Assembly (NCBI GenBank): GCA_023265105.1
Contig: JAHFUJ010000005.1
Location: forward strand, 1 to 47,264
Direction of reading: 5' to 3'
DNA: 47,264 nucleotides
From: Acidobacteriota bacterium
GTDB taxonomy: Bacteria > Acidobacteriota > Vicinamibacteria > Vicinamibacterales > CAVVIG01
Under the pieces are notes generated by a model. That model did no database searches. It was not told the origin of the DNA and was given only the letters and a program-made list of their open reading frames with translations. The position numbers and the translations under genes are program-made. Positions 1,354 to 25,385 of this stretch are shown in pieces. Position 1 is the first letter of the stretch; every line of letters starts with the position of its first letter.

Positions 1354-1447
1354 ATCACGAAGTCGCGAAGAGCACGAAGGCCACGAAGAACTCTTTTTTT
1401 AACAAATGAATCTTCGTGTTCTTCGTGAACCTTCGTGTCTTCGTGAT
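1354..1447. repeat. Long imperfect hairpin of tandem CACGAAG-type units (termini ATCACGAAG / CTTCGTGAT)
   Basis: Left arm atcacgaagtcgcgaagagcacgaaggccacgaagaac. Right arm cttcgtgttcttcgtgaaccttcgtgtcttcgtgat is its imperfect reverse complement, around a T7 loop region. The same termini recur at 20527-20612. Confidence 0.85.
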
Positions 1448-1461
1448 AGACCGTCCGTGGA

Positions 1462-2457
1462 CTATGCCGCGGAGTGTTTCGTTCCCTTCTCCAGCTTCTG
1501 CAACGCCTCGAAGTGCGCCCGCTGCTCCGGCGTCACCTGACGCGGGAGCTGCACGTCGACGGTCGCGTAGAGGTCTCCGCGCTCGGCGGGCTTGCCGACC
1601 GCCGGCATCCCGTGGCCTTTCAACCGAAAGACTTGCGCGTTCTGTGTCGTCGGCGGAATCTTCAAGCGTAGCGACTTGCCACCGATCGTGGCGACCTCCG
1701 CTTCGCCACCGAGCACCGCCAAGGTGAGCGGGATTGCGACATGGGTGTAGAGGTCGCTGCCTTTCCGTTCGAACTTCGGATGCGGCGCCAACCGGATGCG
1801 CAGATACAAGTCACCAGACTGCGCGCCCCCGATTCCATGCTCGCCTTCGCCCGCCACGCGCACGCGGGATCCGTCGACGACGCCGGCCGGGATGCGCACA
1901 TCGACGGTGCGCGCGTGGCCGTCGAGCGCGATCGAGAGCCGGCGCATCGTGCCGTGATAGGCGTCTTCCAGCCCCAGCTCGAGCTCGTGTTCGACGTCGC
2001 GGCCTTTGCGCGCGCGGCCGCGCCCACCCCGGGAGCCGGCGCCTCGGTCTTCCGCGGCCATGCCGCCACCGAAAAACGTGTGGAAGAAATCGGAGAAGGG
2101 ATCGGCGTCGCCGAACATCTCCCGCATCTCTTCTTCGGTCATCGTCCGGAAGCCGCCGCCCGGCGCGCCACCGAAGGGAATATTCCACGCGCCGCTCGGC
2201 TGTCCGCCGGGGGCCGCGCCGGCGTGTTCGTACATCCGCCAGTTCGCGCCAAGCTCGTCGTACTTCTTTCGTTTGGCGGGATCGCCGAGGACCTCGTACG
2301 CCTCGTTGATCTCCTTGAACCTCGCTTCGGCGGACTTGTCGCCCGGATTGACGTCGGGGTGATGCTTGCGCGCCAGCTTCCGGTACGCCTGCTTGAGTTC
2401 CTTCGGCGTGGCGGTCTTTGCCACACCGAGCGTCGAGTAGTAGTCCTTGAAGTCCAC
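1462..2457 (-). CDS. cbpA: J-domain co-chaperone, CbpA-type (J domain, G/F region, no zinc finger, DnaJ C-terminal domains)
   Basis: MDFKDYYSTLGVAKTATPKELKQAYRKLARKHHPDVNPGD carries the HPD motif. A Gly/Phe-rich linker follows, no CxxCxGxG repeats are present, and the C-terminal DnaJ substrate-binding region is there. Confidence 0.9.
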   Translation of the reverse strand: MDFKDYYSTLGVAKTATPKELKQAYRKLARKHHPDVNPGDKSAEARFKEINEAYEVLGDPAKRKKYDELGANWRMYEHAGAAPGGQPSGAWNIPFGGAPGGGFRTMTEEEMREMFGDADPFSDFFHTFFGGGMAAEDRGAGSRGGRGRARKGRDVEHELELGLEDAYHGTMRRLSIALDGHARTVDVRIPAGVVDGSRVRVAGEGEHGIGGAQSGDLYLRIRLAPHPKFERKGSDLYTHVAIPLTLAVLGGEAEVATIGGKSLRLKIPPTTQNAQVFRLKGHGMPAVGKPAERGDLYATVDVQLPRQVTPEQRAHFEALQKLEKGTKHSAA

Positions 2458-2458
2458 G

Positions 2459-2806
2459 TCAGTCGAAGTCCAGGATTCGGATCAGCGCGTCGAGCTCGTG
2501 GGCCAGCCGGCGCCGCCCGTCGCGCGCAGACAGCGCCTCGTCCCGCATCAGCGGGCGAATACGCTCGACCACTTCGCCGATCGACAACAAGCGCTGCACG
2601 CCGGCCAGGTTGATCCCGCCATCGTCGACCAGGCGCTTGATGACCTTCAGTCGCTCCAGCTCGTCGCGCGAGTACAGACGCATGCTTCCGAGCGTCCGGC
2701 TTGGCTGGACCAACCCCAGCCGCTCGTACTTTCTGAGCGTCTGGGGGTGCATCCCGAGCATCCGCGCCGCCATGCTGATGAGATACAGGTCCTGATCGAT
2801 CCCCAT
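2459..2806 (-). CDS. hspR: HspR heat-shock transcriptional repressor (MerR family)
   Basis: MGIDQDLYLISMAARMLGMHPQTLRKYERLGLVQPSRTLGSMRLYS is a MerR-type HTH. The gene sits immediately upstream of the J-protein gene with a 1-nt gap. Start is placed at ATG 2806 because the longer ORF extension runs into the promoter and repeat. Confidence 0.85.
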   Translation of the reverse strand: MGIDQDLYLISMAARMLGMHPQTLRKYERLGLVQPSRTLGSMRLYSRDELERLKVIKRLVDDGGINLAGVQRLLSIGEVVERIRPLMRDEALSARDGRRRLAHELDALIRILDFD

Positions 2807-2846
2807 GCGTCTTTCGGTGCGCGGATTTAAACGCTGCGCCGATCCA

Positions 2847-2875
2847 AGTATAGGTATTGATACGACTCGTGTCAA
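2847..2875 (-). promoter_or_regulatory. Sigma70-type promoter for hspR operon: TTGACA-17 nt-TATACT
   Basis: The reverse strand reads TTGACAcgagtcgtatcaataccTATACT. The -35 is at 2875-2870 and the -10 at 2852-2847, about 40 nt upstream of the hspR ATG. Confidence 0.6.
2857..2875. promoter_or_regulatory. HAIR-like HspR operator palindrome TTGATACGA-c-TCGTGTCAA
   Basis: 19-bp inverted repeat with one mismatch. The TTGA-N11-TCAA spacing is identical to the HAIR consensus CTTGAGT-N7-ACTCAAG. It overlaps the -35 and spacer of the promoter. Confidence 0.55.
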
Positions 2876-2876
2876 G

Positions 2877-2977
2877 GTTCGCAGGGTTCGCAAGGTGCTC
2901 GGGGTTCGCATGGTTCGCGAGGCTCTCGAACCCAGAGAACCTCGCGAACCCCGAGAACCGTGAGAACCTCGAGAACC
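2877..2977. repeat. Long hairpin of nonamer units: 6x GGTTCGCNN followed by 5x ACCNNGAGA
   Basis: Read directly: ggttcgcag ggttcgcaa ggtgctcgg ggttcgcat ggttcgcga ggctctcga / acccagaga acctcgcga accccgaga accgtgaga acctcgaga acc. It fills the divergent hspR-terC gap. Confidence 0.85.
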
Positions 2978-2997
2978 AACCGTATACTGGCAGTTGA

Positions 2998-3777
2998 GTG
3001 TTCCAATTCTCTGATCTCTTCACCATCGCGCTGCTCGTCGCCCTCGAAGGATTGCTAAGCGCCGACAACGCCCTGGTGTTGGCCGTGCTGGTCCTCGGCC
3101 TGCCGAAACACCAGCGGAGCAAAGCGCTGCGCTACGGCATCGGCGGCGCGTTCGCGTTCCGGGCGATCGCGACGCTCCTCGCCGTGTTCCTGATCAGGCT
3201 GGGCTGGGTGAAACTGGTCGGCGCCGGCTATCTGCTGTACCTCTCGTACCGCCATTTCTTTGGGAGCGTGAGCGCCGAAGCTCGGCGCACGCCGCGAACG
3301 GCGCAGCCGTGGCTCGGCTTGCCGGCGTTCTGGGCGACGGTCGTCAAGGTGGAGCTGACCGACATCGTGTTCGCGATCGACTCGATTCTGGTGGCGGTCG
3401 CCATGTCGCCGAAGCTGTGGGTGATCCTGAGCGGCGGAGTCCTCGGGATCGTCATGATGCGGCTGGTCATCGGGCAGTTGTTGTCGCTGGTGGAGAAGTA
3501 TCCACCGCTCGTGGACGCCGCGTTCGTCGTCATCGCGTGGGTCGGCGTCAAGCTGCTGGTCGAGTTCCTGCACGTCGGGGGATTCATCGCGTTCGAGTTC
3601 CCGAAGTGGCTGGCGCTCGGATTGATTGTCGTCATCTTCGGCGTGGCGTTTCTGTACGCGCGACGGCAGGAGCATCACACCCGCACGCGAACCGAACGGG
3701 AGGCGGCGCTCTTACTGACCGAACGGGCCGATGAGGACCGCGAATCCCAAATCCCCACTCCCAAATCCCGTCAGTAG
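2998..3777 (+). CDS. TerC family integral membrane protein
   Basis: GTG start. LVALEGLLSADNALVLAVLV and a second AIDSILVAVAM motif are typical of the TerC/YkoY/Alx family. The protein is polytopic and hydrophobic. Confidence 0.85.
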   Translation: MFQFSDLFTIALLVALEGLLSADNALVLAVLVLGLPKHQRSKALRYGIGGAFAFRAIATLLAVFLIRLGWVKLVGAGYLLYLSYRHFFGSVSAEARRTPRTAQPWLGLPAFWATVVKVELTDIVFAIDSILVAVAMSPKLWVILSGGVLGIVMMRLVIGQLLSLVEKYPPLVDAAFVVIAWVGVKLLVEFLHVGGFIAFEFPKWLALGLIVVIFGVAFLYARRQEHHTRTRTEREAALLLTERADEDRESQIPTPKSRQ

Positions 3778-3779
3778 TA

Positions 3780-4187
3780 CTAGTCGTCACGCCCTTTGAT
3801 GCGCCGGAGGGCCCGCCGCTGGCGTTTGTCGGGTGCGCGGGGCGGCGTCATGGCCGCGCGAAACATCCGCTCCATCCGCCGTATGTCAATCTCCTCGCGT
3901 GTGGGCGCCGGCGTGAGATCTTCGTAAAGCAGCCGCGCCTCCGCTTTGGCCACGTGGCGATCGGCCAGCGCGCGCACCACGACGCGTTGTTTCCGCCCGT
4001 GGGGCCGGCTGATTTCGAGCTCGTCTCCGACCCGCACCAGGCGGTTCGATTTTGCCGCCTGACGGTTGATGTCGATCTTCCCGCCCTTGCATGCTTTCTG
4101 CGCTTCCGAACGCGTTTTGAACAGGCAGGCGACGTCGAGCCAGACGTCGAGCCGCACCGCTTGCGATCGCCCCTCGTCGTTGAGCAT
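3780..4187 (-). CDS. S4-domain RNA-binding protein, Hsp15 (HslR)-like
   Basis: The last 135 codons of track ORF 3780..5477 read MLNDEGRSQAVRLDVWLDVACLFKTRSEAQKACKGGKIDINRQAAKSNRLVRVGDELEI, an S4 fold signature. The upstream part of the track ORF is antisense shadow of the 4470 gene. Confidence 0.8.
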   Translation of the reverse strand: MLNDEGRSQAVRLDVWLDVACLFKTRSEAQKACKGGKIDINRQAAKSNRLVRVGDELEISRPHGRKQRVVVRALADRHVAKAEARLLYEDLTPAPTREEIDIRRMERMFRAAMTPPRAPDKRQRRALRRIKGRDD

Positions 4188-4336
4188 TTCAGTCCGACAT
4201 TCTACAGGTCCAGCCGAGGAGCCCGACTGCGATACCATCGGGCGGCCCTGAAACAACTCGTCGACCGCCGTCGTAACCACAACGTACGTAACCACAATGC
4301 GGTGTCCGCCTTCAGAGCCTGTGAAGAAACCGCTAA

Positions 4337-4407
4337 CCGCCGAGGCCGCAGAGACCGCGGAGAAGAAAATTCTAAGGATTCTCGGCGAGCTCTGCGTGCT
4401 CTGCGGT
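4337..4407. repeat. Imperfect hairpin of CGCAGAG-type units
   Basis: ccgccgaggccgcagagaccgcggagaag ... ttctcggcgagctctgcgtgctctgcgg. A half copy, gtgctctgcgtactctgcgg, lies at 13798-13820. Confidence 0.7.
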
Positions 4408-4469
4408 AAAACGTCGCATTTTTCCACACGCTCTTCAGGCGGACCAACGCGGTCTTGTAAGGAGGTTGT

Positions 4470-5507: not shown

Positions 5508-5582
5508 GGAACCACCCGGAAGCTCTTGTAACCTTGGCGTCGGTCAGCTTCATTGATGGGAAATTCTGGGAAGGGGCGAGTT

Positions 5583-7862: not shown

Positions 7863-7924
7863 CGAAGCTTCGCCTCAGACCGCCGCGTCAGGGGTCTGCG
7901 GGGATCACGGCGAATCTTCGTTAC
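7859..7924 (+). terminator. Compound hairpin overlapping the GH36 stop codon (GTAACGAAG ... CTTCGTTAC with inner CAGACC/GGTCTG stem)
   Basis: A 9-bp outer stem, 7859-7867 pairing with 7916-7924, has a nested inner stem. There is no clear U-tract, so terminator function is only inferred. Confidence 0.35.
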
Positions 7925-8028
7925 TACCATTCCTCCGTGACTCCGTGTCTTCGTGGCATGTGAAAGTGAAGGCGCCGCGATGATATACTCCGCGCGTCTC
8001 AGCGCCTCTCACAAATCGCTTCGGCCCG

Positions 8029-10383: not shown

Positions 10384-10441
10384 ATGAACGGAAGATCGGC
10401 ATTGTCAAGTTGAGGGGATGGTTGGCAGACTCGTCTAAAGT

Positions 10442-12513: not shown

Positions 12514-12577
12514 ACGCAGGAATTGCTCTCAGGAGGGACCAAAAATCATAGCATGCGCCTGTCGGCCAGACAAAGCT

Positions 12578-12667
12578 CTACCACGGAGATCACGGCAAAC
12601 AAGAACAGAGGCCACAGGCCACAATATCTACCGTGTTCCCCCGTTGCTTCCGTGTGACCCGTGGTAG
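12578..12667. repeat. Long hairpin of CACGG-type units, perfect termini CTACCACGG / CCGTGGTAG
   Basis: ctaccacggagatcacggc ... ccgtgttcccccgttgcttccgtgtgacccgtggtag. A related element with ACCACGGAG/CTCCGTGGT termini lies at 23239-23336. Confidence 0.8.
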
Positions 12668-12674
12668 CGCTTTG

Positions 12675-13721
12675 TTATCCGACGGTCGCCACTTCCGCTT
12701 CGCGGGTGAGACCCAATTCGCGGCGGACACGTTCCTCGATCGCTTTGCAGACGTCTGGATTGTCTTTCAGGAACTGCTTCGAGTTCTCGCGGCCTTGGCC
12801 GAGCCGTTCGCCGCCGTACGCGAACCACGCGCCGCTCTTTTCGACGATCCGCTTGTCGACGGCGAGATCGAGCAGATCGCCGGTGCGCGAGATCCCTTCG
12901 CCGTACATCACGTCGAATTCCGCCTCGCGGAATGGCGGCGCGACCTTGTTCTTGACCACCTTCACGCGCGTGCGCCCGCCGACCACGACGTCGCCGTCCT
13001 TGATGCTGGCGATGCGCCGGATGTCGATGCGCACCGACGCATAGAACTTCAGGGCGCGCCCCCCGGTCGTCGTTTCGGGGTTGCCGAACATGACGCCGAT
13101 TTTTTCGCGCAACTGGTTGATGAAGATCAGGCAGGTCTTCGACTTCGACACGACGCCGGTGAGCTTGCGAAGCGCCTGCGACATCAGACGCGCTTGCAGC
13201 CCCATCTGCGCCTCGCCCATCTCGCCTTCGATTTCCGCCCTGGGGACGAGCGCCGCGACCGAGTCGACCACGACCACATCGACGCCGCCGGAACGGATGA
13301 GCACCTCGACGATCTCGAGCGCCTGCTCGCCGTTGTCGGGCTGCGACACGAGCAGGTTGTCGAGGTCGACGCCCAGCTTCTGCGCGTACGCGGCGTCCAG
13401 GGCGTGTTCGGCGTCGACGAAGGCGGCCATGCCGCCCAGCTTTTGCGCTTCCGCAATCACCTGCAGCGCCAGCGTCGTCTTGCCCGACGATTCCGGCCCG
13501 AAGATTTCGACGACCCGGCCGCGCGGGACGCCGCCGACACCGAGCGCGTAATCGATGCTGATGGCGCCAGTGGGAATCGCATCGATCGGCTGAATTGCGC
13601 CCTTTTGGCCAAGGCGCATGATCGAGCCCTTCCCGAATTGTTTTTCGATTTGACCGACCGCCAAATCGACGGCTTTGAGGCGTTCGCGGTCCTGGCGATC
13701 GTCGCGTTCAACTAGCGGCAT
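12675..13721 (-). CDS. recA: Recombinase RecA
   Basis: [19 protein letters not shown], Walker [22 protein letters not shown] and the [23 protein letters not shown] loop L2 region are all present. Confidence 0.98.
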
Positions 13722-14007
13722 GCGGCTCTCCTTTGGACAAGCCTACGAAAACAACCGCAGCGCTCGCTGAGATGGCCGAGCGCACTTGTTTCTCAACGTG
13801 TGCTCTGCGTACTCTGCGGTCAACGTGCCTGGCCAAACGCTGGCTATTCTAAAGGCGTGCCGAGCGAAAGTCAATCGCAAAAACGTGCATGTTCATCAGG
13901 AACTGACTACGTAACAGTCACTTACGAGACCTGAGACTTTCGCCCCTCAGGCTGGAGTTTGCAGTTTCTGCCGCAATGGCGCCTGTGAAGGAGTGATAAA
14001 AGAGCAC

Positions 14008-14594: not shown

Positions 14595-14650
14595 CCACGA
14601 AGTCACGAAAGCACGAAGAAGACCTGTTTTTCTTTTTCGTGTTTTCGTGG
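14595..14650. repeat. CACGAA-unit hairpin between convergent genes
   Basis: ccacgaagtcacgaaagcacgaagaaga cctg tttttctttttcgtgttttcgtgg. Confidence 0.75.
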
Positions 14651-15878: not shown

Positions 15879-15884
15879 AAAATG

Positions 15885-15979
15885 AGGTTCACAAGTTCTC
15901 GAGGTTCACAAGGTTCTCGAGGTTCGCCAGGTTCTCGGGGTTCGAGGTTCGGTTCAAAGTTCCGGGTTCGGGGTTCGCA
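15885..15979. repeat. Direct tandem array of about 12 GGTTC-containing 7-9 nt units
   Basis: gaggttcacaagttctc gaggttcacaaggttctc gaggttcgccaggttctc ggggttcgaggttcggttcaaagttccgggttcggggttcgc. It overlaps the last codons of the DUF721 gene. Confidence 0.8.
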
Positions 15980-16244: not shown

Positions 16245-16247
16245 GAC

Positions 16248-16281: not shown

Positions 16282-16299
16282 ATTCGATCTTATCATTCA

Positions 16300-17049
16300 G
16301 TGATGCGCCTGATTCTGGCGTCCGCGTCGCCGCGCCGGGCCGAGTTGTTGCGCGCCGCCGGTTTTCCCTTCGAGACCTGTGCCGTTGATGTCGACGAGCG
16401 TGTGCGCGCCGGAGAAACGGCCGCGTCCTACGTGCGGCGGCTCGCGGCGGAGAAGTCGGCGCTGGCGGCGATTGCGGTCCACGGGCCGGCTAGAGAAGGT
16501 CCGGCTAAAGCCGGACGCCACGTACTGAATGGTCCGGCTGAAGCCGGACGCCACGGACAGGAAGGTCCGGCTAAAGCCGGACACTACGTACAGACTCACA
16601 ACGTACAGACTCACCCACCAAGTACGGCACAGCAAGTCGTCGTCCTTGGCGCGGACACGGCCGTCGTCATCGACGGCGAGATCCTGGGAAAACCGCGCGA
16701 CAACGGCGACGCCGCGGCAATGCTTCGGCGTCTTTCCGGACGCCGCCACGACGTGATGACCGGCGTCAGCGTGCGGGTGGGCGTTCAGGAAGTCGGTCGT
16801 GTCGAGACGACAGCCGTGTATTTCGTGCCGCTTAGCCCCGCCGAAATCGCGTGGTATGTGGCGAGTGGGGAAGGTCGGGACAAAGCGGGAGCGTACGCGG
16901 CCCAGGGGCTTGCCTCGCGCTTCATCCCCCGGATCGAGGGGTCGTACTCGAACGTTGTCGGTCTGCCGCTCGGGTGCGTGTACGAGTTGCTAAAGGAGCT
17001 CGGCGTGGACTATTCTGGTGGGCAATCCGGTTCCGGGAAGTCCTTATGA
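16300..17049 (+). CDS. maf: Maf-family nucleoside triphosphate pyrophosphatase carrying a ~47-aa repeat-derived insertion
   Basis: LILASASPRRAELL, VLGADTAVVIDGEILGKPRD, MLRRLSGRRHDVMTGV and DKAGAYAAQG are present. The protein is 249 aa against a usual ~190-200 aa. The extra segment HGPAREGPAKAGRHVLNGPAEAGRHGQEGPAKAGHYVQTHNVQTH maps to the repeats at 16499-16614. Confidence 0.9.
   Translation: MMRLILASASPRRAELLRAAGFPFETCAVDVDERVRAGETAASYVRRLAAEKSALAAIAVHGPAREGPAKAGRHVLNGPAEAGRHGQEGPAKAGHYVQTHNVQTHPPSTAQQVVVLGADTAVVIDGEILGKPRDNGDAAAMLRRLSGRRHDVMTGVSVRVGVQEVGRVETTAVYFVPLSPAEIAWYVASGEGRDKAGAYAAQGLASRFIPRIEGSYSNVVGLPLGCVYELLKELGVDYSGGQSGSGKSL
16499..16614 (+). repeat. Three tandem GTCCGGC-NNNN-GCCGGAC hairpin plus (G/A)C(C/T)ACG(T/G)AC elements, then 2x GTACAGACTCAC, inside maf
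   Basis: Hairpins lie at 16499-16516, 16532-16549 and 16565-16582, with tails gccacgtac, gccacggac and actacgtac. Spacing is 33 nt. Confidence 0.9.
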
Positions 17050-17453: not shown

Positions 17454-17454
17454 A

Positions 17455-19935
17455 ATGGCTTCACTGGGCACGTTCCTGCTGTTCGCCTCCTTCGTCGTCT
17501 GCAGCTACGCGGCCGTCGTCTCGGTCGTCGGCGCGCGGCGCGGATCGCGCCGGCTGATTGAAAGCGGCATCGGAGCGTTCTATCTCGTCTGCGCGCTGAT
17601 GACGGTCGCCTCGGCCGTCATAATCAACGCGTTTCTCACCGACGATTTCTCGATCAAGTACGTCGAGCACTACTCGGACAGCGTGCAGCCGCTCTTCTAC
17701 AAGATCACGTCCTATTGGGGCGGCCTCGACGGGTCGATCATGTTCTGGGTGTTTCTGTTGTCGGTGTTCGGCGCCATTGCGGTGTACGTGAACCGCGAGG
17801 CCCACCGCGAGCTGATCCCATACGTCGTCGCCACCATTTCGACCGTTGAGATGTTCTTTCTCTATCTGATGGTCGTCCACAAGAACCCGTTCACGACGTT
17901 CCTGACCACCGTGCCCCAAGACGGCCAGGGACTCAACCCGCTCCTCCAGAACTACTGGATGGCGATTCACCCGCCGTCGCTCTACACCGGTTTCGTTGGG
18001 ATGACGATTCCGTTTGCGTTCTGCATTGCCGCGTTGATCACCGGTCATCTGGACGATTCCTGGCTGCGAGCGGTTCGCCGCTGGACGATGTTCGCGTGGC
18101 TGTTCCTCACCTTCGGGCTGACGCTCGGGATGATCTGGGCGTACGAAGTGCTCGGGTGGGGCGGCTACTGGGGCTGGGATCCGGTCGAAAACGCGGGCCT
18201 CCTGCCGTGGTTTACGGCCACGGCCTTCCTGCATTCGGTGATGGTGCAGGAGCGGCGGAGCATGCTGCGCGTCTGGAACGTCACGCTCGTGATCATGACG
18301 TTCTTCCTGACGATCTTCGGGACGTTCATGACCCGCTCCGGCGTCGTGCAGTCGGTGCACGCCTTCGGCGACGACCCGATGCTCGCGCGGCTCTTCACCA
18401 TGTTCATGATCGCCATCGTGACCTTCAGCTTTGGCCTCGTGATCTACCGGCTGCCGCTGTTGCGCGCGCGCAACGAGCTCGACTCGTGGATGTCGCGCGA
18501 GGCGGCGTTCCTGGTGAACAACTGGGTGCTGCTGTTCTCGGCGCTCTTCATCCTGTTCGCCACGATGTTCCCGACGCTCAGCGAAGCGGTCACCGGAACG
18601 CGGTTGACCGTCGCCGCGCCGTTCTTCAACACGTGGATGGTGCCGATCGGCCTCATCTTGCTGTTCCTGACCGGCGTCGGTCCGATGCTTGCCTGGCGCA
18701 AATCAACCCTCAGCAACCTTCGCGATCAGTTCATGTGGTCCGGGGCCACTGCCGCCGCCGTCGGCCTGCTCGTCGCCGCGCTGGGTGTGCGTCTGTGGTC
18801 GTCGGGCCTCTGTTTCGCGCTGTGCGGCTTCGTCACCGGCACAATCGTGCAGGAATTCTGGCGCGGCGGAAACGTGCGCCGGAAGAACACCGGCACCGAT
18901 CTGTTCACGGCGATCGTCGGTCTTGTCGGCCGGAACAAGCGTCGGTATGGCGGCTATATCGTTCATCTCGGCATCGTCCTGATGTTTCTCGGATTCGGCG
19001 GCAACGGCGCGAAAAAGGACGAGACGGTCCGGCTCAAGCTCGGGCAACAGGCGACGGTCGGCGAGTTCACTGTCCGGAACGACGGCGTCAAGCTCAGCGA
19101 CGACGGCCAGAAGCAGATGATCACCGGCTACATCCCCGTGTTCAAGGACGGGAAACAAATCGACACGATGTATCCGGGTCGATCGATCTTCCGGAAGCAC
19201 GAAAAGGAAGAAGCGAGGACGGACGTCGCGATCCGGCGTTCTCTTGCGCAGGATTTGTACATCGTCCTGCCGGGCGATATCGATTTCGGGACGCAGTCGA
19301 TCAGCCTGCAAGTCGTGGTCAACCCGCTCGTGGACTGGATCTGGCTGGGGTTCGGCGTGCTGGCGTTCGGGACGGGCATCGCGCTGCTGCCCGAGCGAGC
19401 GTATTCCTTTGCGCTCGCGAAGCTGCCCGCTGAAGTCGCCACAGGCGCTATCGCTCTGTTCATCACGGTCGCGTTGAGCGCGGTGTCGCTCTCCGCGCAG
19501 CAGCATGAGGACGATCCCACCGCCGCGATATCGACCCCCAAGAACGCGCTCGAGCAGCAGCTTCGGCAGGAGATGGGCTGCGTCTGCGGCACGTGCGCGC
19601 ACGAGCCGCTCACCAAGTGCACCTGCGGCCAGGCGCAGCGCATGCGTGCCGAGCTTCGCGCCCAAATCGACCAGGGCAAGAATCACGACGAGATCGTCCA
19701 GGCGTTTATCGGCCTCTACGGCGGGCAACAGTTTCTGACTGCGCCGATCGACAAGGGCTTCAACCGCGTGGCCTGGCTGTTCCCGTACCTGCTCGCCGGA
19801 TCCGGGGCGGTGGCGCTCGGCTTCACGGCCGTCCGCTGGTCGCGGCGGCACGCGTCCGCGTCCCCCGACCCGTTCGACCCCGCCGACGCGCAGCTCGAAG
19901 AGCGGCTCGACGATGAGCTCAGAAACCTCGACTGA
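17455..19935 (+). CDS. ccmF: CcmF heme lyase fused to a C-terminal CcmH-like domain
   Basis: The CcmF WWD region WGGYWGWDPVENAGLLPW and conserved His residues are present. After ~650 aa comes LRQEMGCVCGTCAHEPLTKCTCGQAQRMRAELRAQIDQGKNHDEIVQAFIGLYGGQQFLTAPIDKGFNRVAWLFPYLL plus a TM segment, which aligns with CcmH/NrfF. Confidence 0.9.
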   Translation: MASLGTFLLFASFVVCSYAAVVSVVGARRGSRRLIESGIGAFYLVCALMTVASAVIINAFLTDDFSIKYVEHYSDSVQPLFYKITSYWGGLDGSIMFWVFLLSVFGAIAVYVNREAHRELIPYVVATISTVEMFFLYLMVVHKNPFTTFLTTVPQDGQGLNPLLQNYWMAIHPPSLYTGFVGMTIPFAFCIAALITGHLDDSWLRAVRRWTMFAWLFLTFGLTLGMIWAYEVLGWGGYWGWDPVENAGLLPWFTATAFLHSVMVQERRSMLRVWNVTLVIMTFFLTIFGTFMTRSGVVQSVHAFGDDPMLARLFTMFMIAIVTFSFGLVIYRLPLLRARNELDSWMSREAAFLVNNWVLLFSALFILFATMFPTLSEAVTGTRLTVAAPFFNTWMVPIGLILLFLTGVGPMLAWRKSTLSNLRDQFMWSGATAAAVGLLVAALGVRLWSSGLCFALCGFVTGTIVQEFWRGGNVRRKNTGTDLFTAIVGLVGRNKRRYGGYIVHLGIVLMFLGFGGNGAKKDETVRLKLGQQATVGEFTVRNDGVKLSDDGQKQMITGYIPVFKDGKQIDTMYPGRSIFRKHEKEEARTDVAIRRSLAQDLYIVLPGDIDFGTQSISLQVVVNPLVDWIWLGFGVLAFGTGIALLPERAYSFALAKLPAEVATGAIALFITVALSAVSLSAQQHEDDPTAAISTPKNALEQQLRQEMGCVCGTCAHEPLTKCTCGQAQRMRAELRAQIDQGKNHDEIVQAFIGLYGGQQFLTAPIDKGFNRVAWLFPYLLAGSGAVALGFTAVRWSRRHASASPDPFDPADAQLEERLDDELRNLD

Positions 19936-20509: not shown

Positions 20510-20526
20510 CTCCGCCGCGCCGTTTC

Positions 20527-20612
20527 ATCACGAAGACACGAAGAAACGAAGGAGCACGAAGTTCTTTGATCAAGAGTTTCGTGATCTTCGTGGGTTTTCG
20601 TGCCTTCGTGAT
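20527..20612. repeat. CACGAAG-unit hairpin, termini ATCACGAAG / CTTCGTGAT, followed by 3x CCTTGGTGT (20626-20658)
   Basis: atcacgaagacacgaagaaacgaaggagcacgaag ttctttgatcaagag tttcgtgatcttcgtgggttttcgtgccttcgtgat. This is the same family as 1354-1447 and lies inside the ccm gene string. Confidence 0.85.
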
Positions 20613-21834
20613 ACCGCTGTCGATTCCGTTCCTTGGTGTCCTTGGTGTCCTTTGTGTCAGCCGAGCGCAGCTGGCGGCGCAGATCGAGATGCCCGATCCC
20701 AAACAGATGTCGGGCATTCCACGCCCAGTGACCGACCTGCCCGACGGCTCGGTGTCGGTCCGGTTGATTCGCGGCAGTCTCTCGAACAACATCACCAATC
20801 ATCCGGTCGAGCTTCACGTCGGCTCCAAGGTCCAGACGGCGAAGACCGACGACAGTGGGCGCGCGCAGTTCGACGGCCTCACGGCCGGCGCGTCGCTCAA
20901 AGCGGTGGCGGTCGTCGATGGCGAGCGTCTGGAGTCGCAGGAATTCCCCGCGCCGGCTCGAGGCGGCGTCCGGCTCTTGCTGGTTGCCACCGACAACACC
21001 AAGAAGCCCGAGCCGGCCGCAACGGCGCCCGTGTCTGGTCAGGTCGCCCTCGGGGGAGACTCGCGCGTCGTCCTGGAGCCGGGCGAGGAAACGGTGCGGA
21101 TGTACTACATCCTGGACATCGTCAACAGCGCGCGCGCGCCGGTCAACCTGGCGACGCCGTTCGTGTTCGACATGCCCACCGGCGCCGTGGGCACGACGGT
21201 CATCGAGGGATCGTCACCGCAGGCGAAGGTCAGCGGCACTCGCGTGAGCGTGCAGGGGCCATTTGCGCCCGGTCGCACATCCGTGCAGATCGGGTGTGAG
21301 CTGCCGGTGCCCGCTGACACGCTGCACGTGACGCAGCAATTTCCAGCGCCGCTCGAGCGCCTCGCCGTCATCGTGAAAAAGGTCGGTGCGACGACGTTGA
21401 GCTCGCCGCAGATCACCAGTCAACGGGATCTCACGGCCGAGGGCCAGACCTTCATCCTTGCGACGGGCGGCGCGGTCGCCGCCGGGCAGCCCCTCGTGAT
21501 GTCGCTCGGCGAGCTGCCACACCACAGTTCGGCGCCACGCGGGATCGCGCTCTCGCTCGTCGTCGCCATTGTCGCCGCCGGCGTCTGGGCGTCACGCCGG
21601 CCCGGAGACACGGCGGCGCGCGTGGCCGAGCGACGGCGCCTCATCGCGCGGCGTGACAAGCTGTTCAACGACCTCGTCCGCCTCGAGCGCGAACGTCGAA
21701 CTGGCCGCGGGGATGAGGCGCGCTATCGGGCGCGCCGTGAAGAGATGGTGGCCGCCCTCGAGCACATCTACGGCGCTCTCGACGGCGACGATACCGGCCC
21801 CGAGCCTGCGACCGGCGCGGGTCTCGCGGCGTGA
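20566..21834 (+). CDS. Exported protein with carboxypeptidase-regulatory-like beta-sandwich, C-terminal TM anchor and cytoplasmic charged helix; unknown function (ccm-embedded)
   Basis: HVGSKVQTAKTDDSGRAQFDGLTAGASLKAVAVV is beta-sandwich-like. A late TM segment IALSLVVAIVAAGVWA is followed by RRRLIARRDKLFNDLVRLERERR. Start is uncertain: TTG 20566 gives a signal peptide IKSFVIFVGFRAFVIPLSIPFLGVLGVLCVSRA encoded by the repeats. Alternatives are 20491 and ATG 20689. Confidence 0.65.
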   Translation: MIKSFVIFVGFRAFVIPLSIPFLGVLGVLCVSRAQLAAQIEMPDPKQMSGIPRPVTDLPDGSVSVRLIRGSLSNNITNHPVELHVGSKVQTAKTDDSGRAQFDGLTAGASLKAVAVVDGERLESQEFPAPARGGVRLLLVATDNTKKPEPAATAPVSGQVALGGDSRVVLEPGEETVRMYYILDIVNSARAPVNLATPFVFDMPTGAVGTTVIEGSSPQAKVSGTRVSVQGPFAPGRTSVQIGCELPVPADTLHVTQQFPAPLERLAVIVKKVGATTLSSPQITSQRDLTAEGQTFILATGGAVAAGQPLVMSLGELPHHSSAPRGIALSLVVAIVAAGVWASRRPGDTAARVAERRRLIARRDKLFNDLVRLERERRTGRGDEARYRARREEMVAALEHIYGALDGDDTGPEPATGAGLAA

Positions 21835-22532
21835 TGAGTGATTTCGACCAGGTGCGGCTGGTCGATGTGTCACGGCACTTCGGCCGGCGGCGGGCCGTGT
21901 CGCACGTCTCACTTTCGGCCCGGTCTGGCGAGATCGTCGGCCTCCTCGGTCCCAACGGCGCAGGGAAGTCGACGCTGATCGGCGTTCTCGCGACGCTCGT
22001 CGCTCCGACGAGCGGCGGTGTCTACTATGGCGACGGTTCACGCGGCGCGGACGCGGCGCTGCGGAAACGAATCGGTTTGCTGGCGCACGAGCCGCACCTG
22101 TACCCCGAACTTTCCGCGCGCCAGAACCTGACGTTTTTCGCCGAGCTCTATGGAGTGAAGGCCCGCGAGACGGTCGATCGCGCGCTCGACGCCGCTGGGC
22201 TCGGCGACCGCGGCGAGGACGAGGTCTCGGGATTTTCGCGCGGCATGCGCCAGCGGCTCGCGCTCGAGCGCGCGTTGCTGCATCGGCCGCGACTGGTGCT
22301 GCTCGACGAGCCGTTCACGGGCCTCGACGACCGCTCGGTCGGGGTTGTGACGGATCGGCTGCGGCGTCTCGCGGCGGACGGCGCTATCGTCTGGCTCGCC
22401 ACGCACGATCTCGATCTGGCCGACGGCCTGGTCACCCATGTCGCGCTCATGCGCGACGGCCGGATGCTTGTGAACGAGCCGGCGGCCCCCGGGCTGCGCG
22501 CCCGCTATCGGGCGCTCATCGGAAGCGCGTGA
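21831..22532 (+). CDS. ccmA: Heme exporter ABC ATPase CcmA
   Basis: Walker A GPNGAGKSTL, signature SGFSRGMRQRL and Walker B LVLLDEP are present. The gene is adjacent to ccmB and ccmC. Confidence 0.9.
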   Translation: MMSDFDQVRLVDVSRHFGRRRAVSHVSLSARSGEIVGLLGPNGAGKSTLIGVLATLVAPTSGGVYYGDGSRGADAALRKRIGLLAHEPHLYPELSARQNLTFFAELYGVKARETVDRALDAAGLGDRGEDEVSGFSRGMRQRLALERALLHRPRLVLLDEPFTGLDDRSVGVVTDRLRRLAADGAIVWLATHDLDLADGLVTHVALMRDGRMLVNEPAAPGLRARYRALIGSA

Positions 22533-22551
22533 CCGCGGCTGCGGAGACACC

Positions 22552-23229
22552 GTGTTTCTGAAAGTCGCGCTGCTCGTGCTGCGGAAAGACTTCGCGATCG
22601 AGGTTAGGAGCCGCGAAATCCTTTTCACGACGCTGTTCTTCGCGCTGTCGTGCGTGCTGGTGTTTTCGTTCGCCTTCGTCAAAGAGGGCGAGCCGCTCGA
22701 AGACGCGGCGTCCGGCATTCTGTGGATTGCGATCGCGTTCGCCGGGACGCTGGCGCTCGGGCGGACGTTCGAGCGCGAGCGGTACGGCGAAACGCTGCGG
22801 GCGCTCTTGCTCGCGCCGGCGCCGCGGCCGGCCATTTACGTCGGCAAGCTGATCGGCATCGTGCTCCTGCTCGTGGTCGCCGAGGCGCTCCTGGTTCCGC
22901 TCGTGGCGCTGCTGTTTCAGGCCACGCTCTTTGCGCGTCCGTTGCTGCTGAGCGGGCTGTTGCTGGCGGGAACCATCGGATTCTGCGCCGTCGGGACGCT
23001 GTTCGCGGCGATGCTCGTGCGGGCCCGGACGCGCGACGTCATGCTGCCGATCTTGTTGTATCCGATCACGGTTCCGGTGATCATTGCCGGTGTGCGTGGG
23101 ACCTCGGCGTTGCTGCAGGCCACGCCCGACGAAGCGGCGGCGACGATGTGGATCGCCTTGCTGGTGTGTTTCGATGTCGTCTTCGTCACGCTGGCGTTGT
23201 GGACGTTCGAACCGCTCATGACAGAATGA
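22552..23229 (+). CDS. ccmB: Heme exporter membrane protein CcmB
   Basis: GTG start. A 6-TM protein with LRKDFAIEVRSREIL...FERERYGETLRALLLAP, typical of CcmB. Confidence 0.88.
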   Translation: MFLKVALLVLRKDFAIEVRSREILFTTLFFALSCVLVFSFAFVKEGEPLEDAASGILWIAIAFAGTLALGRTFERERYGETLRALLLAPAPRPAIYVGKLIGIVLLLVVAEALLVPLVALLFQATLFARPLLLSGLLLAGTIGFCAVGTLFAAMLVRARTRDVMLPILLYPITVPVIIAGVRGTSALLQATPDEAAATMWIALLVCFDVVFVTLALWTFEPLMTE

Positions 23230-23238
23230 CGACGAGGA

Positions 23239-23336
23239 ACCACGGAGGACACGGCCTACTCTCGCCGGCATAACGGAGAACACGGAAATCTCTAGTATGC
23301 CCGTGACCTCCGTTCGTCTTCCGTGCTCTCCGTGGT
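23239..23336. repeat. CACGGA-unit hairpin, termini ACCACGGAG / CTCCGTGGT, between ccmB and ccmC
   Basis: accacggaggacacggcc ... aacggagaacacggaaatctctagtatgcccgtgacctccgttcgtcttccgtgctctccgtggt. Confidence 0.8.
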
Positions 23337-23347
23337 AGAGCTTTCCT

Positions 23348-24004
23348 ATGCGAAAGATATTTACGCCCCTCACTGTCCTCGTCGCCCTGATGTTCGTCTA
23401 CGCCCCGGTGATGATCGCCAACGCGCCCTACGAGTCGACCATGGGGCTCGTGCAAAAGATTTTTTACTTCCACGTGCCCGCGTGGTGGGCGATGTTCACG
23501 GGCGTGCTCATCTGCGGGATCGGGAGCGCGATGCACCTCTTTCGCCGCGCGCCGGCGGCAGACCGTCTGGCTGCCGCCGCGGGCGAGCTGACGGTGCTGT
23601 TCGGCGCGATCGGCCTGGTCACCGGACCGCTCTGGGGCCGCAAGGCGTGGGGCGTGTGGTGGCAATGGGACGCGCGGCTCACCATGGCGCTGCTGCTTGA
23701 ATTGATCTTCGTCGGCTACTTGCTGGTGCGAAAGTACGGCGGCCCGGGCTCGGACAAGCTGGGCGCCGCGATGGCCGTGTTCGGCATGGCCAACGTGCCG
23801 TTCGTGTACGTCTCGGTGAACATCTGGCGCACCGTCCATCCGAAAACGAGCGTAGTGCCGACACTCGGCCCCGGCATGTTCGGCGCGTTCTGGTACAGCG
23901 TGCTGTCATTCATGCTTCTGTTTACGTTGCTGCTGACGATCCGGTTTCACCTCGAGCAGCAGCGCGCCGAGCTCGATCGGCTCTATCTTGCGGAAGAGGA
24001 GTGA
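23348..24004 (+). CDS. ccmC: Heme exporter/heme handling protein CcmC
   Basis: The WWD motif WGVWWQWDARLT and conserved His (FYFHVPAWW) are present in a 6-TM protein. Confidence 0.92.
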   Translation: MRKIFTPLTVLVALMFVYAPVMIANAPYESTMGLVQKIFYFHVPAWWAMFTGVLICGIGSAMHLFRRAPAADRLAAAAGELTVLFGAIGLVTGPLWGRKAWGVWWQWDARLTMALLLELIFVGYLLVRKYGGPGSDKLGAAMAVFGMANVPFVYVSVNIWRTVHPKTSVVPTLGPGMFGAFWYSVLSFMLLFTLLLTIRFHLEQQRAELDRLYLAEEE

Positions 24005-24011
24005 CGTGGTG

Positions 24012-24287
24012 ATGCGACGCGTCTTGATCGCGATGTCTTCAATGATCTTACTGACCGCGCCGGCGTACGCCTTCCAGCCTGCGGCTGGGCAGAGCGAGTT
24101 CGTGCCGGTCAACCAGTTGCCCCCCGCCGACCAGCTTCCGGCGGCGCCGCTGCTCATCGCCGCCTACGCGTTCGTGTGGGTCGTGCTGATGCTGTACTTG
24201 TGGTCGATCTGGCGGCGGCTCGGCAAGGTCGAGGTCGACATGCGCTCGCTCGAGCAGCGAGGAGCCGCCCGGAAGGGCGGGCGATGA
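24012..24287 (+). CDS. ccmD: CcmD-family small membrane protein (long form with signal-like N-terminus)
   Basis: The single TM LLIAAYAFVWVVLMLYLWSIWRRLGKVE resembles CcmD, and the gene lies directly after ccmC. Start is taken at ATG 24012. Confidence 0.65.
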   Translation: MRRVLIAMSSMILLTAPAYAFQPAAGQSEFVPVNQLPPADQLPAAPLLIAAYAFVWVVLMLYLWSIWRRLGKVEVDMRSLEQRGAARKGGR

Positions 24288-24433
24288 CCGCCGGACACTT
24301 TATCTTTATCCCGGCGGTCCTGCTCGTGGGCGTTGTCGTCGGCTGGATCCTCGGGTCGCGCGCCGCTCGCGACGCCTACGCGGTGGAGTTGAAACGGCGG
24401 GAGGAACGCGCGGCCAAAGGCGGCCCGCGATGA
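24284..24433 (+). CDS. 49-aa single-TM protein, unknown function
   Basis: MTAGHFIFIPAVLLVGVVVGWILGSRAARDAYAVELKRREERAAKGGPR. The ATG overlaps the preceding stop (ATGA), suggesting translational coupling. Confidence 0.45.
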   Translation: MTAGHFIFIPAVLLVGVVVGWILGSRAARDAYAVELKRREERAAKGGPR

Positions 24434-24441
24434 GCGCCGGA

Positions 24442-24539
24442 GGAATTTGGAATTAGGAATTAAGAATTAGGAATTAAGAATTAGTTTAGGAACTCGAGTT
24501 CTTAATTGTTCTTAATTCTTAATTCACAATTCCAAATTT
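24442..24539. repeat. AT-rich long hairpin of AATTARG heptamers around a GAACTCGAGTTC centre
   Basis: ggaatttggaattaggaattaagaattaggaattaagaattagtttaggaac tcga gttcttaattgttcttaattcttaattcacaattccaaatttc. It fills the whole gap between convergent genes. Confidence 0.9.
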
Positions 24540-25286
24540 CTACCGTCCCACCGCCAACCGGTGCGCCAGCACCTCGGGCAGCCCCGCCATCACCAGCTTC
24601 GCCTGCGTCTCTTCGACGGCGTACCTGATGCGAAACAACTCGACGGCTCGCGCCGCGGTGTCCACAATCGCGTACGCCGCGCGCGGATCGCCGTCGCGCG
24701 GCTGGCCCACCGAACCGGGGTTGACGAGATACTTCGATCGGGGACGCATCGACAGCAGCTGCATTTCCGCGGCGGCGATCGGGTCGATGCTGTCGAACAT
24801 CCCGTCGGACAACTCGAAGGAGACGGGGTAGTGGGTGTGACCGAACAGGCAAAGAGGACGCACCGACGTTTTCAGCGCGTGTACGGCATCGAGCTCGTCG
24901 AAGATGTAGGAGTCTTCGTCAAACGGCGCTCCGTGGCAGATTTCGACCACCTCGTCGACAATCGTCGGCCCCAGCGGAAGCGACGCCAGCCATTCGCGGT
25001 TCGCGGGCGTCAACACCTCGTGGGTCCATCGGGCGGCGTTCTTCGCCACGGTGTTGAAGCCGTCGGGCGGCTCCAGTCCGGATGCCACTTTGTCGTGATT
25101 GCCGCGCACGATGGCCATCGGAGCCAGGTCCTGGATGCGCTTGACGGCGGCGTTCGGCTCGGGGCCGTAGCCGACCAGATCGCCCAAGACGAGGGCGCCA
25201 TCGTAGCCGCGCGCGGTCGCGTCGGCGAGACAGGCGTCGAGCGCCTCCATGTTCGCGTGAATATCGGTCAGGACAAGATAGCGCAT
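24540..25286 (-). CDS. Metallophosphoesterase (calcineurin-like, YfcE/MJ0936-type)
   Basis: MRYLVLTDIHAN, VLGDLVGYGPEP, RGNHD and FGHTHYP motifs are present. Start is taken at ATG 25286. Confidence 0.88.
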   Translation of the reverse strand: MRYLVLTDIHANMEALDACLADATARGYDGALVLGDLVGYGPEPNAAVKRIQDLAPMAIVRGNHDKVASGLEPPDGFNTVAKNAARWTHEVLTPANREWLASLPLGPTIVDEVVEICHGAPFDEDSYIFDELDAVHALKTSVRPLCLFGHTHYPVSFELSDGMFDSIDPIAAAEMQLLSMRPRSKYLVNPGSVGQPRDGDPRAAYAIVDTAARAVELFRIRYAVEETQAKLVMAGLPEVLAHRLAVGR

Positions 25287-25289
25287 CAG

Positions 25290-25385
25290 TGCACGGACAG
25301 ACCAATGCACGAATGCACGAATGCACGAATGCACAAGTCGAAGCGGTGAACCCCGTGCATTATTGCATTGTTGCATTCCTGCATT
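25290..25385. repeat. Hairpin of AATGCACG octamers versus TGCATT units
   Basis: ccaatgcacgaatgcacgaatgcacgaatgcac ... gtgcattattgcattgttgcattcctgcatt. Confidence 0.85.

Follow-up and report, generated by a model that had tools for sequence, protein, structure and literature searches.

The gene gaps of a soil acidobacterium hold long hairpins whose arms are tandem arrays of 7-9 nt units. We interpret them as gene-less copies of small palindromic intergenic elements with head-out arms, the full CRCRRAG form of which encloses a gene of the GxxExxY family, and give this reading a probability of roughly 55%. The DNA analysed is a stretch of 47,264 nt from an Acidobacteriota bacterium (positions 1 to 47,264 of contig JAHFUJ010000005.1, GenBank assembly GCA_023265105.1), referred to here as the window. 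Nine intergenic hairpins of 56-101 nt and three partial arrays lie between positions 1354 and 25385, the hairpins consisting of 7-9 nt units followed by reverse-complement units. These hairpins are confirmed as real, and arms of the same kind are associated with GxxExxY genes across phyla.

GxxExxY genes between unit-array arms

Five contigs selected for their arrays (L105, L109, L134, L146 and L171; numbers from L001 to L232 denote contigs and loci of relatives and metagenomes used in the comparisons) carry a gene that is about 123 codons long and has a CRCRRAG array on one side and a mirror array on the other. The enclosed protein of about 123 amino acids is a GxxExxY protein (TIGR04256, E values of 1e-40 to 1e-44; PF13366, PDDEXK_3, with a PD-(D/E)xK nuclease fold). 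Arms of this gene-bearing form usually have 3+3 units and TTCAC...GTGAA heads; the left array ends at or just ahead of the ATG, and the right array lies a few bases past the stop codon.

The arrangement was also found at homologues that had not been selected for arrays. At L232, which lies on a 2.69-Mb contig, it reads CTAC CACGAAG GA CACGAAG GT CGCGAAG ATG ... TGA AAGTG CTTCGTG CTTT TTCGTG TC CTTCGTG GTGAGA, and the homologue on L222 is arranged in a similar way. The RNA of the L232 cassette has a predicted fold with both arrays as its closing stem, and L232 also carries a gene-less AATGACGA hairpin that fills an lpx operon gap between two lipid A genes. The annotated GxxExxY gene of Bacteroides finegoldii stands within TTCAC CACAGAG GA CGCAGAG GA CACGGAG ... 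CTCTGTG AC CTCTGTG TC CTCTGTG GTGAA. A GxxExxY gene in CGCGAAG arms lies between fabD and fabG of Sphingomonas parapaucimobilis, and Bernardetia has one in CACAGAG arms. Two complete gene-less CGCAGAG hairpins, 100% identical and 500 nt apart, flank the GxxExxY gene of Gemmatirosa kalamazoonensis. In Prevotella nigrescens the arrays and gene-less hairpins that flank a more distant GxxExxY gene use another word, ACAAATN; by analogy with this case, the other words of the window (GGTTCGC/GAGAACC and AGGAATT) may belong to other GxxExxY subfamilies. A Treponema GxxExxY gene has a plain inverted repeat.

In twelve homologues the residues D67, E77 and K79 (D...ExK, catalytic-type) and the GxxExxY motif are invariant. 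At least 8000 relatives were returned by one search, the best 120 all being at least 86% identical to the query. PF13366 has been reported as a family whose function is unknown and which has been transferred multiple times from one bacterial division to another (PMC3424549). No PDB relative was found by sequence and no close relative on viral contigs, and an AlphaFold model made from a shallow alignment was unusable (predicted local distance difference test score 40).

Other small open reading frames (ORFs; 64-124 codons) lie between or abut CRCRRAG arrays in L086 (1763-1786, 4575-4956), L136, L121 and L159. One small array-adjoining ORF begins CACGAAG ATG GCG AAG, and the single ORF tested had no NCBIfam match. 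CRCRRAG shells may carry cargo besides GxxExxY.

Anatomy and unit families

In every hairpin of the window the unit cores (7-9 bp) pair as helices, and the spacers of 1-3 nt that separate the units form the internal loops. One superfamily, with the unit CRCRRAG, a period of 8-9 nt, AC/GT heads and the purine arm first, takes in six hairpins and two half sites. The six hairpins (1354, 4337, 12578, 14595, 20527 and 23239) all have the unit, the period and the purine-first chirality of the shells, with AC/GT heads in four of them and AT/AT heads in two. They are read as gene-less copies because unit, period, chirality and, mostly, heads are common to them and the GxxExxY shells and because their loops are so short. 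The term gene-less refers to the loops of the window hairpins, which all span 5-25 nt, and to the absence of any PF13366 ORF from the window.

The several sequence families of the original prediction largely collapse. CACGAAG, ACCACGGAG, CGCAGAG and probably AATGCACG are one CRCRRAG-type superfamily, while the GGTTCGC/GAGAACC and AGGAATT words remain apart. CACGAAG, CACGGAG and CGCAGAG are grouped together since they differ by transitions only and mix within arrays elsewhere. AATGCACG is a rotation of CACGAATG, and the hairpin at 25290 fits the CRCRRAG shell only when read in this rotated form; those at 2877 and 24442 do not fit it. The shared termini were correctly noted, as ATCACGAAG/CTTCGTGAT at 1354 and 20527 and as ACCACGGAG...CTCCGTGGTAG at 12578 and 23239. 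Outside the units, members of one family within the window are only about 70% alike.

Folding and assembly controls

Every site listed in the original prediction was found in its place, and each is one long bulged hairpin with a minimum free energy of -27 to -56 kcal/mol. Measured against dinucleotide-shuffled controls (200 shuffles per site), folding reached z-scores between -3.3 and -10.4 for one strand or both. The listed half copy (13798-13820) is real as well, and there are partial members beyond those listed, at 7904-7955 (1+3 units) and as a direct 9-mer array at 15884-15977. Tandem Repeats Finder (TRF) detected the arrays with periods of 7-9 and higher orders of 14, 18 and 27. A word-chain detector, which looks for a chain of a 5-mer at 6-12 nt spacing together with a chain of its reverse complement, gave seven hits in the window; 1.39 Mb of shuffled loci gave none. 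When 140-nt windows were aligned to their own reverse complements, the sites at 1354, 2877, 20527 and 24442 scored above every shuffle, and those at 4337 and 25290 lay at or above the 99th percentile. Neighbouring CRCRRAG units were observed 11 times in the window against about 0.18 expected.

The detector and the self-reverse-complement scores replaced a sliding RNAfold energy threshold with counts of unbranched pairs, which could not tell the hairpins from coding DNA of 65% G+C; a BLAST self-search for inverted repeats missed most sites. An Rfam search of the window and 12 metagenome loci returned only tRNA-Phe and chance miRNA-like matches.

The claim that hairpins fill most gaps is borne out for the first 25.4 kb, where gaps were counted from the gene calls of the NCBI record. 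About 15 gaps are at least 50 nt long; nine hold a full hairpin, three a partial array and one REP-like repeats (REP, repetitive extragenic palindromic), and two hold nothing notable. The word-chain detector found no unit-array hairpin between 25.4 and 47.3 kb, where the gaps hold a REP-like repeat.

An assembly or sequencing artefact would agree with the fact that short-read contigs at times break within hairpins (L211), and it is already refuted by identical hairpins in independent assemblies, on megabase-size contigs of metagenome-assembled genomes (MAGs) and on finished plasmids of cultured strains. Similar hairpins lie on the megabase-size MAG contigs L002, L064 and L232. The sites themselves are unchanged in a 99.7%-identical NCBI MAG contig and in several contigs from the European Nucleotide Archive, and because they are the same in independent assemblies the hairpins are not artefacts of assembly.

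Recurrence across lineages

The dispersal that was proposed for the CACGAAG type holds well beyond the window. A metagenome scan for three CACGAAG units returned at least 120 contigs with G+C contents from 41 to 70%, and the heads are conserved among them. Most measures were taken on loci L082-L161, and unit numbers and spacers on L082-L201. The outer flank is conserved as TTMAC ahead of the first unit and as GTKAAW, then T-rich sequence, past the mirror arm (G.86, T.83, K, A, A). Units follow one another with a period of 8-9 nt, and 24 of 46 distinct hairpins have 3+3 units. Neighbouring arrays had the purine arm first (FR) in 32 cases and the reverse order (RF) in none. Spacers are purine-rich on both arms, each read in the CACGAAG sense, and were complementary between arms in 20 of 76 comparisons and non-complementary in 56. 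Since so few are complementary, the arms look like two independent head-out arrays and not like an inverted duplication. In four loci of one lineage (L096, L097, L109 and L149) the CACGAAG hairpin lies inside a longer conserved palindrome, CAGCGCGGCAAAGCCGCAACCAAAG followed by A-rich sequence, TTTCAC and the units and then by the mirror image, the composite being about 170 nt long.

In a panel of loci assembled around RecA, arrays of at least three CRCRRAR units were present in 5 of about 33 Acidobacteriota loci and in none of about 47 others. Acidobacteriota of other classes (for example L035, L052 and L064) also have unit-array hairpins, each with its own words, and such hairpins are rare in the other phyla of the panel. 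In syntenic loci of Vicinamibacteria-like MAGs the site 3' of recA holds a hairpin of CAGTNNN units in L003, a hairpin of GAGATGA units in L009, a plain hairpin in L010 and a T-run terminator in L004; the remaining gaps of these loci are too short for a hairpin. The architecture therefore recurs at a site and the sequence does not.

Identical MerR, CcmB, AroK and CcmE proteins led to strain contigs whose identity to the window is 98.5-100%. L203, which is 98.8% identical overall, has a non-homologous 8-mer hairpin (ATCTGGTA/ATTGGATA versus TACCAGAT/CACCCAAT) in place of the whole dnaJ-clpB gap. The replaced gap is flanked by clusters of single-nucleotide polymorphisms (SNPs) at 1180-1237 in clpB (10 differences) and at 1477-1518 in dnaJ (8 differences), which indicates that this region of L203 is a short recombination patch imported from a more distant lineage.

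The suggestion that the arrays grow by tandem duplication is supported by a perfect 8-mer, AATGCACG x4, at 25304-25334 on the left arm only, and by 14-mer and 18-mer higher-order repeats of 90-93% identity. Such very recent copies on some arms mean that slippage on single arms does occur. The hairpins could on this basis be a neutral by-product of mutation, slippage having expanded units on the arms of small palindromes in weakly constrained intergenic DNA with neither function nor mobility. Perfect duplications confined to one arm, higher-order repeats of 14-18 nt, inter-arm spacers that are mostly non-complementary and the partial or degenerate members at 7904-7955, 13798-13820 and 15884-15977 all suit this explanation, as does the reported over-representation of heptamer repeats in many bacteria (cited in PMC4692102). 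It leaves unexplained why word, heads and 3+3 format are alike across phyla, the 32:0 chirality, the precise link with one gene family and the constant unit number among strains, and we regard it as improbable.

Position relative to genes and promoters

Seven of the nine hairpins lie 0-46 nt past a stop codon and the other two between divergent genes. The distance from the upstream stop is 0 nt for mpe and aroK, 7 for recA, 8 for orf49, 9 for ccmB, 14 for dnaJ, 17 for the zinc-ribbon gene, 23 for ydjM and 46 for thiolase. Several hairpins stand within likely operons (dnaJ-clpB, ccmB-ccmC and aroK-mpe). Given this closeness to stop codons they are probably co-transcribed, and their position makes a REP-like effect on the host likely. 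Their G+C content is 0.26-0.62, compared with 0.65 for the window.

The hairpins were held not to be plain terminators, and this stands: canonical hairpin-plus-T-run sites in the window do not exceed shuffles (14 versus 16.1 and 16 versus 14.6), and the sites at 2877-2977 and 4337-4407 separate divergent genes. A promoter scan placed TTGACA-17-TATACT (11/12), a strong promoter-like site for merR-dnaJ-clpB, at 2875->2847, with the hairpin 2877-2977 directly upstream of its -35 box (2875-2870). A weaker terC-directed promoter-like site lies on the other side, its -35 box being inside the right arm of the hairpin. As it is set between outward promoter-like sites of divergent genes, 2877-2977 is probably not transcribed. 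A promoter reading of the GTGAA head was dropped, no -10 signal being present 16-18 nt outward. A crude and weak analysis of gene orientation at single arrays gave 14 in purine sense and 6 in the other.

These positions suit a different explanation, that the hairpins are RNA structures with a host function at 3' ends and between cistrons, where they act to halt transcription, to bar 3'-to-5' exonucleases or to guide processing. Slippage would build and rebuild them locally, as any left unit can pair with any right unit, and the GxxExxY gene would merely home in on them. The placement of seven hairpins close behind stop codons, several of them within operons, accords with this, and so does the lack of enrichment of canonical terminators, so that something else may serve. 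At the site downstream of recA, L004 has a T-run terminator where the window, L003 and L009 have unit-array hairpins, and the dnaJ-clpB site of L203 retains the architecture with another word. A like role has been proposed for the hairpins of cyanobacteria and the arrays of Xanthomonas discussed below, the latter lying on average 28 nt past the upstream ORF (PMC2670836, PMC4692102). Set against this are the two hairpins between divergent genes, one of them probably untranscribed, and the conservation across phyla of heads, word, 3+3 format and chirality, which would be unexpected under local convergent growth; a test of G-U asymmetry for the folded strand came out three for, one against and one tie. 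We consider this explanation unlikely.

The hairpins could instead act as DNA, either as arrays of binding sites for a DNA-binding protein or as cruciforms that absorb supercoiling between transcription units. The hairpin 2877-2977 between two divergent promoter-like sites, the other hairpins that abut -35 boxes and the regular 8-9 bp spacing and 3+3 format, which suggest a protein platform, could be understood in this way. A single genome has several unrelated words, the 8-9 bp period places successive sites on different faces of the helix, and the sole candidate protein is GxxExxY, which is part of our preferred explanation; we hold a purely DNA-level role to be very improbable. Telomerase-like end healing, DNA-uptake sequences, Chi sites and integron attC sites were dropped, their defining features being absent.

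Proposed gene-less copies and a possible mechanism

The reading of the window hairpins as gene-less copies of GxxExxY-bearing elements has several observations to contend with. Neither the window nor the 21-kb syntenic loci of its relatives contain a GxxExxY/PF13366 ORF, and three word families have no gene link here (GGTTCGC/GAGAACC, AGGAATT and the L203 8-mers). No clear arrays were found at two of eight plasmid-borne GxxExxY genes (two AT-rich records), and in Gemmatirosa the gene lies between two complete hairpins and not inside one. Reverse (RF) arrangements occur in L035, L064 and L171. The strain contigs carry the same hairpins with four point changes only and a constant unit number, L203 being the sole exception; strains at least 99.5% identical show no change in the hairpins. 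The GxxExxY gene could also be a secondary invader of host hairpins, and its protein might do no more than regulate itself.

Recent mobility finds no support either. Among 30 hairpins examined at offsets of 0-40 nt, no direct repeat above chance marked a target-site duplication, and the window contains no near-identical copies. The description of the hairpins as like miniature inverted-repeat transposable elements (MITEs) is on these grounds not supported in its classical form, and in modified form it is supported. TTCAC/GTGAA heads and CRCRRAG arrays are common to gene-less hairpins and GxxExxY-bearing copies.

If the window hairpins are such gene-less copies, they would descend from, or be serviced by, gene-bearing GxxExxY elements as empty shells. 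The GxxExxY protein would recognise the heptamer arrays, or the hairpin or cruciform formed by them, and would be responsible for their spread. The purine-first chirality could be explained if the enclosed gene takes a Shine-Dalgarno-like leader, GAAGGA a few bases ahead of the ATG, from the upstream array. Arms would then drift by unit slippage, each independently, and co-transcribed hairpins in the host might act like REP elements, as barriers to 3' exonucleases, processing sites or weak terminators. A wider proposal, which is tentative and in our view doubtful, makes the GxxExxY proteins, of which soil metagenomes hold thousands of near-identical copies, the recognition and mobility nucleases of an unrecognised cross-phylum class of mini-elements that end in head-out heptamer arrays, and the window hairpins their non-autonomous offspring; unit words would then match GxxExxY subfamilies.

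If the link is true, it would give a first functional handle on GxxExxY/PF13366, a very abundant orphan family, would account for a kind of intergenic repeat found in most gene gaps of some soil bacteria, and would point to a new way of building and spreading small selfish elements without target duplications. The cultured organisms Gemmatirosa kalamazoonensis and Bacteroides finegoldii carry the full system, which makes it directly testable. In practice, the hairpins lead to breaks in short-read assemblies and to shifted annotated start codons, as at 20581 and 25376, where the start overlaps a hairpin. Within operons such as ccmABC and dnaJ-clpB they may also determine where mRNAs end, in a phylum that seems to have few canonical terminators.

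Comparison with known repeat systems

The original prediction knew of no described element class with this build, which does not hold, since inverted pairs of heptamer arrays have been described in Xanthomonas (PMC4692102) and hairpin-forming STRR (short tandemly repeated repetitive) elements in cyanobacteria (PMC2670836). Rehm et al. (2015) reported GGGAATC arrays in Xanthomonas and GGGGAYT arrays in Nostoc, with 70-75 cases per genome of two convergent arrays able to form stem-loops (PMC4692102). Like the elements described here, the Xanthomonas arrays are tandem intergenic 7-nt units in convergent pairs, mostly just 3' of the upstream ORF, and vary in length and sequence between close species; they differ in that each genome has a single G-rich word, which was studied for quadruplex formation, and no conserved heads, 3+3 format or gene has been reported for them (PMC4692102). 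The window elements have several words per genome, mostly without G-tracts, and the GxxExxY link. An array of AATCCCA x4 (reverse complement TGGGATT) at 3743-3769, at the terC 3' end where it meets a convergent S4-domain gene, is the sole one resembling the quadruplex-type heptamers GGGGATT/GGGAATC.

STRR words are CCCCAGT and others. The words of the window (CRCRRAG, GGTTCGC, AGGAATT and AATGCACG) differ from the STRR and Xanthomonas words GGGAATC, GGGGAYT and CCCCAGT. The cyanobacterial STRR are likewise 7-bp intergenic tandem repeats able to form hairpins, instances being those in the hupS-hupL intergenic region and upstream of hoxW, and a role in transcript stability or termination has been proposed (PMC2670836). 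They differ in being described mainly as direct arrays, with no known gene association. The TAACTGA repeats of Beggiatoaceae, cyanobacteria and Bacteroidetes are also intergenic heptamer arrays of distant phyla that often end beside a start codon, a position shared by the CACGAAG array at GxxExxY genes; they are almost only direct (one inverted case among 170 sets), and neither a hairpin nor an enclosed gene has been described (PMC4679880).

REP sequences and their REP-associated tyrosine transposases (RAYT), including the tyrosine transposases of Acidobacteria flanked by terminal inverted repeats (Di Nocera et al. 2013, PMC3733652), are closest in logic to the GxxExxY-associated element. REPs and bacterial interspersed mosaic elements are small palindromic extragenic repeats, mostly 3' of genes, probably transcribed and without target duplication, and the gene of the presumed mobilising enzyme is flanked by its own repeats; the hairpin-gene-hairpin order of Gemmatirosa resembles a REPtron. 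A REP is a single palindrome of 20-40 bp with a GTAG or CGTC tag on one side, whereas each arm in the window is an array of 2-6 units and heads are present on both sides. RAYT are HUH tyrosine transposases (Y1_Tnp), and the flanked gene here encodes a GxxExxY/PF13366 protein of PD-(D/E)xK fold.

Bacterial MITEs such as Correia, ERIC and RUP are short imperfect palindromes that do not code for protein; their ends are conserved and their interior varies, and they are co-transcribed with neighbours and related to a longer coding element. Conserved ends, a variable interior and, on our reading, kinship to a protein-coding element are likenesses to the window hairpins. Target-site duplications and descent from DDE insertion sequences mark the classical MITEs; the window elements lack such duplications, and the partner GxxExxY gene is not a known transposase. 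The relation of gene-less hairpin to GxxExxY element may be comparable to that of REP to RAYT or of MITE to insertion sequence, differing in build, enzyme fold and lack of target duplication. A literature search, which was not exhaustive, found no paper with these array sequences or with repeats round GxxExxY/PF13366 genes. The new and testable part is the GxxExxY association, the claim of a new element class being softened by the Xanthomonas and cyanobacterial precedents.

Individual sites

The hairpin at 1354-1447 (4+4 CACGAAG/CTTCGTG, AT/AT heads) separates dnaJ (stop at 1462) from clpB (start at 1342), two genes of the minus strand. It folds at -46 kcal/mol (z -7.4/-8.0) with helices of 9, 7, 8 and 8 bp separated by spacer loops. 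The hairpin at 2877-2977, between the divergent merR/hspR-like and terC genes, has about 5+5 nonamers, GGTTCGCNN versus NNGAGAACC/GCGAACC, and folds at -56/-61 kcal/mol (z -5.8/-6.9). Its strain SNPs 2948A>G and 2911T>G retain or add G-T pairs. The surrounding region 2845-2990 is a symmetric divergent promoter region with TATACT -10-like boxes on both sides and the TTGACA -35 box for merR-dnaJ-clpB; the inverted repeat TTGATAC..GTGTCAA (2857-2875) could be an HspR/MerR operator.

Units CGCCGAG/CGCAGAG/CGCGGAG facing CTCTGCG, with AC/GT heads, form the hairpin at 4337-4407 between the divergent S4-domain and beta-propeller genes (z -3.8/-4.3). The CGCAGAG unit and AAC head recur in the gene-less hairpins of Gemmatirosa. 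Within this intergenic region (4298-4424) SNP density between the window and the NCBI MAG contig is about 10 times the average, some 130 nt accounting for 8 of the 63 differences, among them an indel at 4333. The degenerate site at 7904-7955, between the melibiase gene and a spermidine-synthase-like gene, has one ATCACGG against three CTCCGTG/CTTCGTG units and was recognised from TRF (7933-7955), pattern matches and the fold of the gap 7863-8028.

Near recA, the hairpin at 12578-12667 with ACCACGGAG termini starts 7 nt past the stop (12675; z -3.3 on the plus strand, -4.5 on the minus strand). It ends just ahead of a predicted tRNA-Phe promoter (-35 at 12573), and flanking bases lengthen the stem to about 12570-12675. 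The half array CTCTGCG x2 at 13798-13820 (CGCAGAG on the minus strand) lies in the predicted 5' untranslated region of recA, a promoter-like site for which was placed at 13874->13846. A 3+2 hairpin of CACGAAG/CACGAAA units occupies 14595-14650 between the convergent ydjM and thiolase genes (z -6.3/-4.1), and 14603-14650 is the sole site that also matches the hairpin-plus-T-run pattern. About ten GAGGTTCNC nonamers form the direct array at 15884-15977, between the thiolase start and the dciA 3' end (TRF period 9/18, 90%). This array has no inverted partner, its folding is not significant (z -1.9), and its word is related to the units of 2877-2977.

The hairpin at 20527-20612 (4+4 CACGAAG, AT/AT heads; z -6.0/-7.7) lies 17 nt past the stop of a zinc-ribbon protein gene and overlaps the annotated start of the following gene; this start at 20581 is probably wrong. 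Just past it, TCCTTGGTG x3.2 (95%) occupies 20630-20658, at or ahead of the true start of the next gene. In the ccmABC operon the hairpin at 23239-23336, 9 nt past the ccmB stop, has ACCACGGAGG/TCTCCGTGGT termini and a degenerate interior (z -4.4/-5.2) and is identical in strain contig L209. The AT-rich hairpin at 24442-24539 (G+C 0.26), with AGGAATT/AAGAATT versus AATTCTT/AATTCCA, lies between a small ORF and the metallophosphoesterase stop (z -10). The last, at 25290-25385 (AATGCACG x4, 100% identical copies, versus TGCATTNN x4; z -3.7/-3.8), fills the gap from the aroK stop (25386) to the metallophosphoesterase start (25286), and the short-read contig L211 breaks in its loop.

Gene content and other repeats of the window

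The window is chromosomal DNA of a Vicinamibacterales-like acidobacterium, with a G+C content of 65% and ordinary chromosomal genes: a partial clpB, dnaJ, a MerR/HspR-like regulator, terC, melibiase, a spermidine-synthase-like gene, recA, tRNA-Phe, ydjM, thiolase, dciA, maf, ccmE, ccmF/H, ccmABC, aroK, aroA and then a polysaccharide gene cluster. No transposase gene is among them. Its RecA is 90% identical to that of a Vicinamibacterales MAG, the next best matches being Acidobacteriota. Contig JAHFUN010000008.1 (MAG GCA_023265075.1), a separate assembly 99.7% identical to the window, encodes an identical RecA and differs at 63 positions and by a 100-N gap in ccmF. In the window ccmF and ccmH are fused in one 826-aa ORF (17455-19935), and in the NCBI MAG contig the 100-N scaffold gap (L001 4705-4804) stands in place of 714 nt of this fusion.

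A second, unrelated repeat class consists of GTCCGGCTNNAGCCGGAC hairpins, with 10 good copies against 0.68 expected, at 16499-16582, 33440-33457, 41243-41301, 41405-41502 and 42445-42462. They are often in tandem arrays of 15-49 nt, beside GTACGTAG/GTACGTGG, and occupy gaps without unit-array hairpins. They look like GTAG-tagged REP elements, having a single palindrome with a tag on one side. The annotated maf start (16303) probably runs through one of these arrays. Tandem repeats of 30 nt, CTCGTGGCGGAGGACTTTAGCCCTGCCGTA, occur at 30474-30589 (3.9 copies) and 46534-46599 (2.2 copies) with 80-83% identity and are possibly another REP-like family; the former lies inside a 535-aa ORF without a Pfam match, which may not be a real gene. 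Between the HATPase and inositol monophosphatase genes, at 27770-27815, a near-perfect 17-bp palindrome (CTAGTGCCTCGTTGCGG ATTT CTGCAGCGAGGCACTAG) forms an ordinary hairpin that is not built of units.

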